The notes: generated by a model not told the origin, from the sequence alone. Positions 689 through 1,256 are shown, counted from the stretch's first letter. The stretch: DNA of 7,833 nt from a virus (IMGVR_UViG_638341082_000003:1-7833), one strand, 5' to 3'. Numbers and translations: made by a program.

Positions 689-926
689 TCGCCTGTAAGA
701 GCAGAATATTTTGCTGAAAAATGAAGGGTGCGTCAGCGTCCGGTAAGCATGAAATTCTGTGTTTGTGGCTACTCAATAAAATAAATTCTTTCTGTCGCCG
801 CGAATACTCAAATGTTGATCAGTGCCCGGTGCGGCGACGGGCTTCGATATCAGGAGACGATGATGGAAAAAAACAGAAAACAAACCGATTGTAATTGGTG
901 CTGATGCTGCTCCGTTTAAGTTTGAG

Positions 927-1256
927 TTGTCTCAACTGGTGGAGATGCGTATCAGTGATGAATGGGGTGAGGTTAAAGCCCGCGCGCAGTATGCGGATGG
1001 CGAAAACCAGTACTTGATCCACTACAAAGCAGCTGATGGTCGCGCCACGACGGAGTGGTTTGGTGAGTCAATGCTGGAAGCAACAGAAGATGATCGTCAT
1101 CCGGGTTGTCCGGTATTTGCCGGTATGAAATTACCGGAAGGTGCAGTTGAACTGCAGCCGGGTGAGGTGTTCGTAATGACAGACATCATTGATGGTAAAC
1201 CGCAGTATTCGCGTATTGAAATGAATAGTAAGAGTGCTCGCCTGATTCGTGAGTAA
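927..1256 (+). CDS. Hypothetical protein (104 aa from ATG 945); start uncertain, possibly frameshifted relative to a strong SD/ATG at 852-865
   Basis: Long ORF ending TAA 1254-1256. ATG 945 has no properly spaced SD, and TTG 927 is the ORF-track start. A strong AGGAG plus ATG pair at 852-865 opens a 13-14 codon ORF in the +2 frame instead. No homolog recognised. Confidence 0.4.
   Translation: MSQLVEMRISDEWGEVKARAQYADGENQYLIHYKAADGRATTEWFGESMLEATEDDRHPGCPVFAGMKLPEGAVELQPGEVFVMTDIIDGKPQYSRIEMNSKSARLIRE

Follow-up and report, generated by a model that had tools for sequence, protein, structure and literature searches.

Why should the best translation start in a stretch of prophage DNA lead into an open reading frame (ORF) of only 13 codons, and why should the adjoining frame stay open as far as 1256 with no convincing start of its own? 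This question is raised by positions 852-1256 of a 7,833-nt stretch of DNA, here called the window, which corresponds to bases 1-7833 of contig AAMK02000005.1 in an E. coli draft genome (assembly GCA_000168095.1). An initial annotation of this DNA had pointed to a run of seven adenines (A7) in the overlap of the two frames and had read the site as a homopolymer frameshift, for which a pseudogene, a slippage-prone phase-variable site, a +1 ribosomal shift or a sequencing error were all considered. Here, we compare the site with its homologues and conclude that 852-1256 is very probably a homopolymer-slippage frameshift allele of a small late lambdoid-phage gene, and probably a young pseudogene in a decaying prophage.

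A defective lambdoid prophage

The window lies in a lambdoid prophage, and the contig begins inside an M15 endolysin gene (Table 1). The two small conserved ORFs that follow at 391-504 and 506-688 occupy the position where spanins would be expected. As the cos region lies 3' of the frameshifted gene, this gene is the last one before the right end of the packaged chromosome. The cos-region sequence ACGGGGCGGAAGGCGCGCGGGTTTTCGCTATTTATGAAAATTTTCCGG falls within 1650-1700, about 190 nt 5' of nu1, and the putative 12-nt cohesive end GGGCGGAAGGCG departs in its second half from the GGGCGGCGACCT of lambda.

Terminase A is followed by W, a truncated portal gene, a capsid gene fragment and the tail-fibre and tail-fibre assembly genes. 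Two internal deletions were located by comparison to E300010, a relative with an uninterrupted 130-aa coding sequence (CDS) in place of the frameshifted gene. At 5114-5117 about 2.4 kb is missing (the portal C-terminus, the protease and most of D), and the portal, cut after 212 codons, runs straight into the last part of the head-decoration gene and from there into the first part of the capsid gene. At 5831-5836 about 2.7 kb is missing (the rest of E through the tail tube gene, V), and the capsid gene, cut after 154 codons, is joined to DNA just 5' of the tail-fibre gene. The prophage in the window is therefore defective. The portal is likewise truncated in AST85, another strain with the A7 tract. 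Chromosomal genes, encoding a methyltransferase and an ABC permease, are found about 0.8-2 kb past the end of the window.

No promoter-like site was found near the gene in a scan of 250-1900, and terminator-like sites in the same interval were only weakly above those in shuffled sequences, with none between 580 and 1479. In several homologous loci (L023, L026-L028 and L040-L041) a canonical intrinsic-terminator tail, GCGGGGCTTTTTTAT, lies directly 5' of the Shine-Dalgarno sequence of the gene; the window has a weaker hairpin at 824-849, GCCCG-N9-CGGGC, followed by TTCGATAT. It may be that only antiterminated late transcripts extend into the gene. An antisense ORF at 819-1022 (67 aa) was rejected as a shadow of the conserved plus-strand frame, in which the substitutions between alleles are synonymous.

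Table 1. Features of the window, with coordinates counted from its first base.
Feature	Position	Strand	Basis or remark
M15 endolysin, C-terminus; end of the lysis cassette	61-258	+	phrog_465
Small conserved ORF, 37 aa, C-terminal hydrophobic segment	391-504	+	phrog_4493
Small conserved ORF, 60 aa, LVGC lipobox	506-688	+	phrog_7528
Shine-Dalgarno sequence AGGAG of the ancestral gene	852-856	+	6 nt 5' of ATG 863
Ancestral start codon ATG	863-865	+	PGAP start of WP_000415817.1 in ETEC H10407; sole ATG in ATAATG alleles
Truncated product, 13-codon ORF MEKNRKQTDCNWC, ending at TGA 902-904	863-904	+	ORF 812-904 in the same frame
Orphaned gene body in the +1 frame, residues 3-130 of the intact protein, ending at TAA 1254-1256	864-1256	+	No further lesion
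A7 homopolymer, the lesion: ancestral A6 (GAA AAA ACA = E K T) plus one A	867-873	+	Allele comparison
ATT, PGAP start of the 122-aa CDS (888-1256) in A7 alleles	888-890	+	No Shine-Dalgarno sequence; upstream 20 nt are aaaaaacagaaaacaaaccg
Internal ATG, Met28 of the intact protein; gene-caller start for the 103-aa product	945-947	+	Frameshifted alleles
Lambda-like cos region, GGGCGGAAGGCG, then CGCGGGTTTTCGCTATTTATGAAAATTTTCCGG	1653-1664	+	By likeness to lambda cos
Terminase small subunit, nu1	1841-2386	+	Pfam PF07471
Terminase A	2361-4286		Gene order

Start signals and reading frames

Direct reading of the sequence bore out the coordinates given in the initial annotation. AGGAG at 852-856 precedes two ATG codons, at 860-862 and 863-865, whose common frame translates as M(M)EKNRKQTDCNWC and then runs into TGA 902-904, 13 codons from ATG 863. 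The long ORF in the next frame is open from 864 to TAA 1254-1256; this +1 frame has a TGA at 861-863 and no stop thereafter until its end. The A7 run (867-873) is located between the short ORF and the long frame and is separated from ATG 863-865 by the G at 866. The long ORF was also rightly described as lacking a convincing start, as no usable Shine-Dalgarno sequence accompanies ATT 888, TTG 927, GTG 939 or ATG 945, the GGAG at 941-944 directly touching ATG 945 and being unusable for this reason. Two details had to be amended. The ORF given as 104 aa is real but encodes 103 aa plus a stop when counted from ATG 945 to 1256, and of the two candidate ATGs only the one at 863 stands as the start, because some relatives read ATAATG for ATGATG and because AGGAG is spaced 6 nt from it. 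ATG 860-862 is thus an additional in-frame ATG that is not conserved, within a motif, (A/T)GGAGA-N-GAT(G/A)ATG, that is kept across the homologous loci.

The window contains three A/T runs of at least seven (at 867, 4080 and 5356) against about 0.6 expected in random sequence of the same composition. The A7 run by itself is unremarkable, and its meaning comes from the comparison of homologues. Slippage of this kind may also occur at the other two runs, namely an A7 at 4080-4086, which lies in frame within the gene for the large terminase subunit, and a T7 at 5356-5362 just 5' of the capsid gene fragment.

The intact gene and its homologues

Removal of one A joins the two frames into the continuous protein of about 130 aa foreseen in the initial annotation, starting M(M)EKTENKPIVIGADAAPFKFELSQLVEMRISDEW, and the same DNA with six adenines (A6) is annotated as a 130-aa CDS. 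The conceptual protein is identical, residue for residue, to a public 130-aa protein present on at least 993 contigs, and its residues 2-116 align to the phage protein family phrog_1935 along the complete profile of the family (positions 1-116 of 116; E 2.5e-69). In enterotoxigenic E. coli (ETEC) H10407, RefSeq annotates the gene as a single 130-aa CDS (ETEC_RS06665, WP_000415817.1) starting at the ATG equivalent to 863, with 99.8% DNA identity to the window. The 521 bases of the locus were found in 72 complete E. coli genomes at a coverage of at least 80%, and the majority of these were one base shorter. The same gene is present as L33 in phage phiP27 (NP_543085.1), where 98.4% DNA identity extends over window positions 780-1149, the C-terminal third differs, and annotation begins at an upstream ATG equivalent to window position 812. 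The copies in H10407 and phiP27 share the position of the window gene, 3' of the lysis genes and 5' of cos and the terminase, and both are in frame, with A6 in H10407 and GAAACAACA in phiP27, unlike the A7 of the window.

If the protein naturally began at the equivalents of 945 or 927, the A run would be of no consequence. This was not found in the homologues. The stretch between the A run and ATG 945 is conserved across E. coli, Salmonella, Enterobacter, Klebsiella, Edwardsiella and Yersinia, with F18, F20, L22, Q24 and V26 nearly invariant, and the differences among alleles there include the synonymous changes GAG>GAA and TTG>CTG, both in the residues FELS. This conservation upstream of ATG 945 places the start of the protein 5' of the A run. 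Codons 28-95 show pN/pS of 0.0-0.2, and codons 1-27 are more variable, with 0.33-0.87. Natural homologues in Yersinia start just before the FKFE motif, and the first 16 residues or so are therefore dispensable.

Tract-length alleles in E. coli

The A tract was compared by matching exact sequences of about 80 bases, differing only in tract length, to 5,426 complete E. coli genomes. The in-frame length A6 was matched in 68 genomes and the off-frame lengths A7 and A5 in 6 and 4 genomes, respectively, and A8 in none, so that close relatives differ in tract length in a way that switches the frame. A6 was also found in 55 of the 83 fetched loci that could be typed. Off-frame alleles, in both directions and at this one site, thus amount to about 10-14%, or roughly one in eight. 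The A7 and A6 alleles have identical flanks, and when positions 1-1697 of the window were aligned to E300010 the sole gap fell in the stretch of the A tract.

The truncated gene calls tell the same story on a wider scale, with 103-aa products on 123 contigs and 122-aa products on 36, to be set beside the intact form. Ten loci encoding the 103-aa product were sampled, nine of which had A7 and one A5. They came from varied prophage contexts, with terminases of the Nu1 or the DUF1441 type, some looking intact and some deleted.

When the tract itself was masked, the off-frame lengths were distributed over at least four haplotype backgrounds: the main ETEC haplotype (A7), that of the window and locus L096 (A7), that of locus L093 (A5), and an SE11-type haplotype, at least 16 differences away from any in-frame allele, which occurs with both A7 and A5. 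Strain SE11 itself harbours the gene in two prophages, with A7 in one copy and A5 in the other; apart from the tract, these copies differ at only two sites in 530 bp. Both SE11 copies and the A5 copy of EC71 share a GAA>TAA nonsense change six codons ahead of the stop codon that ends the 98-aa form. The run is not a fixed property of the gene. It is replaced by GAAACAACA in 13 loci, phiP27 included, and by GCAAAGAAAGAA in another; in four loci it is in frame as ATG-A7, and it is absent in other genera. Off-frame lengths on several haplotypes clearly mark the run, as far as sequence comparison can tell, as a recurrent mutational hot spot.

Complete genomes with A7 came from Kenya, Mali and Japan. 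Being found in many independent assemblies, A7 is judged to be a heritable and geographically widespread allele and not a read error.

A probable young pseudogene, presumably made by slippage

The proposed course of events is as follows. The ancestral gene has its ATG at 863 behind AGGAG and continues ATG GAA AAA ACA, with a run of six adenines. One A was gained in the lineage of the window, and we infer slipped-strand mispairing during DNA replication as the cause. Ribosomes entering at the only good start site would then stop after 13 codons at TGA 902-904, and the other 128 codons would be left in the +1 frame without a proper start. The most likely consequence is that the protein is lost or nearly lost, and with it, to judge from the reading frames, its function.

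Several observations argue for this course. One uninterrupted ORF is the rule in close relatives, as in H10407, E300010, the contigs with the 130-aa protein and the typed loci with A6. The difference from them is a change of one base in a mononucleotide run, A7 instead of A6, and constitutes the single gap in 1,697 aligned bases. The shifted frame meets a premature stop, and the part downstream lacks translation signals, the four internal candidate starts being without Shine-Dalgarno sequences. The homopolymer frameshift proposed in the initial annotation is thereby borne out, and from among its options that of a pseudogene or frameshift allele agrees best with intact alleles as the norm and recurrent off-frame A5 and A7. 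The lesion is recent, since the remainder of the gene is otherwise identical to the commonest intact allele, and the gene in the window is probably a pseudogene. A7 was also found in prophages with intact-looking terminase and portal genes, and the allele is therefore not simply a by-product of prophage decay. By the allele counts, the gene seems dispensable enough to be broken in about one of eight alleles, also where the packaging genes look intact.

Homopolymer frameshift pseudogenes of decaying prophages and bacterial genomes offer the closest parallel. The window shares with them a one-base run change in a coding region, an intact norm, a premature stop, recurrent independent events and a defective surrounding element, and nothing essential differs. 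Only the placing of the lesion in codons 2-4 stands out, and it is on this account that nearly the whole ORF is intact and has been re-annotated as 122, 103 or 64 aa.

Alternative readings of the A7 allele

The same mutation may have left the gene alive if a functional shortened protein were made from ATT 888, TTG 927 or ATG 945, perhaps by re-initiation after the stop at 904. No stop interrupts the frame, and in the A7 allele everything from F18 onwards, the conserved core in its entirety, can still be read; as to the N-terminal residues, about 16, some natural homologues vary in them or lack them. Between the end of the short ORF and TTG 927 or ATG 945 lie 23-41 nt, a distance over which re-initiation can occur, and PGAP annotates the 122-aa CDS from ATT 888, a start that would retain the entire core. 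Nevertheless, all of the internal starts lack a Shine-Dalgarno sequence at the proper distance. Initiation at ATT codons is very inefficient, and the one at 888 sits inside the translated short ORF, a start at TTG 927 loses the nearly invariant F18 and F20, and one at ATG 945 would lose the first barrel strand of the predicted structure. A functional short protein is accordingly an improbable outcome; residual expression by re-initiation is possible and would probably be small.

A second reading is that replication slippage toggles the tract among A5, A6 and A7, such that populations of lysogens would always be a mixture of on and off cells. In contingency loci of Haemophilus, Neisseria and Campylobacter the length of a run near the 5' end of an ORF likewise sets the frame on or off, and both shorter and longer off-alleles are found in the population, as they are here. 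A reversible switch would also yield about 10-14% of off-frame alleles in both directions. Variants of -1 and +1 occur on at least four haplotypes, about 13% of the genomes with exact flanks are off-frame, the SE11 pair with A7 and A5 has only 2 other differences in 530 bp, and the main A7 allele is without a second lesion. Against this, the tract is short, 6-7 nt, and the A/T tracts of known contingency loci are usually 8-9 nt or longer. No A8 allele was found in the 5,426 complete genomes. Also unlike contingency loci, the run is not conserved among alleles, with many functional ones having an interrupted run (GAAACAACA or GCAAAGAAAGAA) or none, and it is overwhelmingly of the on length. The SE11-type off alleles carry the TAA nonsense codon in addition, and a gene located behind the lysis genes of the late operon is probably silent in lysogens, which would give a switch nothing to act on. 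The slippage-prone site of the initial annotation can thus be retained as a recurrent hot spot, but phase variation is neither shown nor favoured and must be regarded as unlikely. A stronger form of the idea, in which the A run at codons 2-4 is a heritable reversible switch for a lysis-cassette-linked, HspQ-like-barrel protein encoded directly after the spanin genes in lambdoid and P2-like phages alike, is distinctly unlikely. If true, lysogen populations would carry a standing mix of phages that make and do not make the protein. The locus would then be one of the rare E. coli prophage genes to undergo simple-sequence phase variation, and it would offer a first way into the role of a lysis-associated family that is as yet uncharacterised.

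Programmed recoding, by a +1 ribosomal frameshift or by slippage of RNA polymerase, might restore the 130-aa protein from A7. A runs and AAA codons for lysine are known slippery contexts, and the required shift, +1 or one A fewer in the mRNA, would fall within the run; the conceptual trans-frame peptide would span MEK-TENKP (MEK|TENKPIVIGADAAPFK). However, homologues are single ORFs as a rule and none keeps the layout of two ORFs. Nor is the slippery run retained: many alleles have GAAACAACA or GCAAAGAAAGAA in its place or lack it entirely. Apart from AGGAG, which serves initiation and is located 12 nt from the AAA codon, no Shine-Dalgarno sequence is available. A spacing of 12 nt promotes shifts to -1, as it does in dnaX, whereas here the -1 frame terminates at TAA 892-894. 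A -1 frameshift on A AAA AAC was rejected in the same way, as its frame ends at this TAA and differs from that of the long ORF. Neither an internal Shine-Dalgarno sequence with +1 spacing nor a downstream structure was seen: RNA folding of 845-965 gave no unusual structure (z = -1.55, with 15 of 200 shuffles folding as well), and scanning the entire window against Rfam produced no match. Transcriptional slippage on A/T runs in E. coli consists mainly of single-base insertions, within-run deletions being rare (PMC5574713), but rescue of A7 requires -1 or +2, and the functional slippage sites that have been surveyed used runs of 9 (PMC1088944). The +1 ribosomal shift put forward in the initial annotation is thus left with an unconserved two-ORF layout and no stimulator, and programmed recoding of the A7 allele is not supported and highly improbable.

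The chance that the extra A arose through faulty sequencing or assembly of this record is negligible: homopolymer length errors are a common artefact on some platforms, and several of the A7 complete genomes belong to one study series (CM1285xx-CM1286xx), but this series also includes A6 genomes, the identical A7 is present in 6 complete genomes contributed by three or more projects, in the draft contig of the window, in an IMG/VR contig and in nine of ten sampled short-read, NCBI or ENA assemblies, and truncated products are found on 123 and 36 contigs.

Predicted structure and genomic setting of the protein

The AlphaFold model of the intact 130-aa protein has a mean pLDDT of 70, rising to 83-88 in the N-terminal barrel. 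In it, residues 1-24 form a floppy N-terminus, 25-73 a barrel of five strands, the first of which is predicted at residues 25-28, and 94-129 a C-terminal part of four strands. The best structural match of the predicted SH3/Tudor-like barrel is HspQ (PDB 5ycq), although a great many proteins share this class of fold, confidence in the model is no more than moderate, and NusG KOW, Tudor, chromo and PsaE domains rank closely behind. Membership in the HspQ/YccV family was not borne out at the level of sequence, as searches of Pfam, NCBIfam and PDB sequences were negative, and by the model no function is transferable from the likeness to HspQ or YccV. Scans of the intact protein with Pfam, NCBIfam and PADLOC gave no family at E ≤ 1, and Foldseek found no match among viral predicted structures (BFVD) at E ≤ 1e-3. 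Hha, the only sequence-profile match in PDB, was discarded, its E of about 1 being at chance level. No relevant paper came up when the literature was searched by accession or locus tag.

The setting of the gene is more telling. In the homologous loci examined it is always directly 3' of the lysis cassette, in lambdoid and in P2-like phages. Lambdoid prophages of E. coli and Edwardsiella have holin, endolysin and spanin-like (Rz/LysC-like) genes, followed by the gene and then by cos and the terminase. In P2-like prophages of Enterobacter the order is holin, M15 endolysin, DUF2514, the gene and tail gene R (gpR), and the start of the gene abuts the stop of DUF2514. This arrangement in two unrelated phage types points to a lysis-cassette-linked late accessory gene, with a putative accessory role tied to the lysis module. 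To our knowledge, such a function of the family has been studied by nobody.

Annotation and natural variants

RefSeq/PGAP annotates the A7 alleles with a 122-aa CDS from ATT (WP_032303084.1) and with no pseudogene flag, and the A5 alleles examined (SE11 and EC71) with a 64-aa CDS only. The ATT 888 start is an annotation work-around. The lesion is hidden by current annotation in this manner, and the databases hold artificial short forms of 122, 103 and 64 aa; the A7 allele is already public, mis-annotated as shorter genes. With regard to wider biology the case is of little import, being an example of a dispensable prophage gene that breaks first at its most slippery site. The intact gene belongs to an uncharacterised family linked to the lysis cassette in phages of two unrelated types. 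Anyone wishing to probe the role of the protein has, in the natural A5, A6 and A7 alleles, a near-isogenic set of knock-outs at hand.

The family also varies in domain content. One variant of 223 aa (P0043) has two tandem barrel domains, and another of 222 aa (P0057) has an N-terminal extension resembling the N-terminal part of a tail-fibre assembly protein. In a third member, of 109 aa (P0036), the N-terminus MRRRASISGDDDGKNRKQT passes through two other frames before joining IVIGADAAPF. By its protein sequence this looks like another, independent frameshift allele, which would imply an A6 tract and, about 15 nt 3' of it, one base missing from CCGATT.
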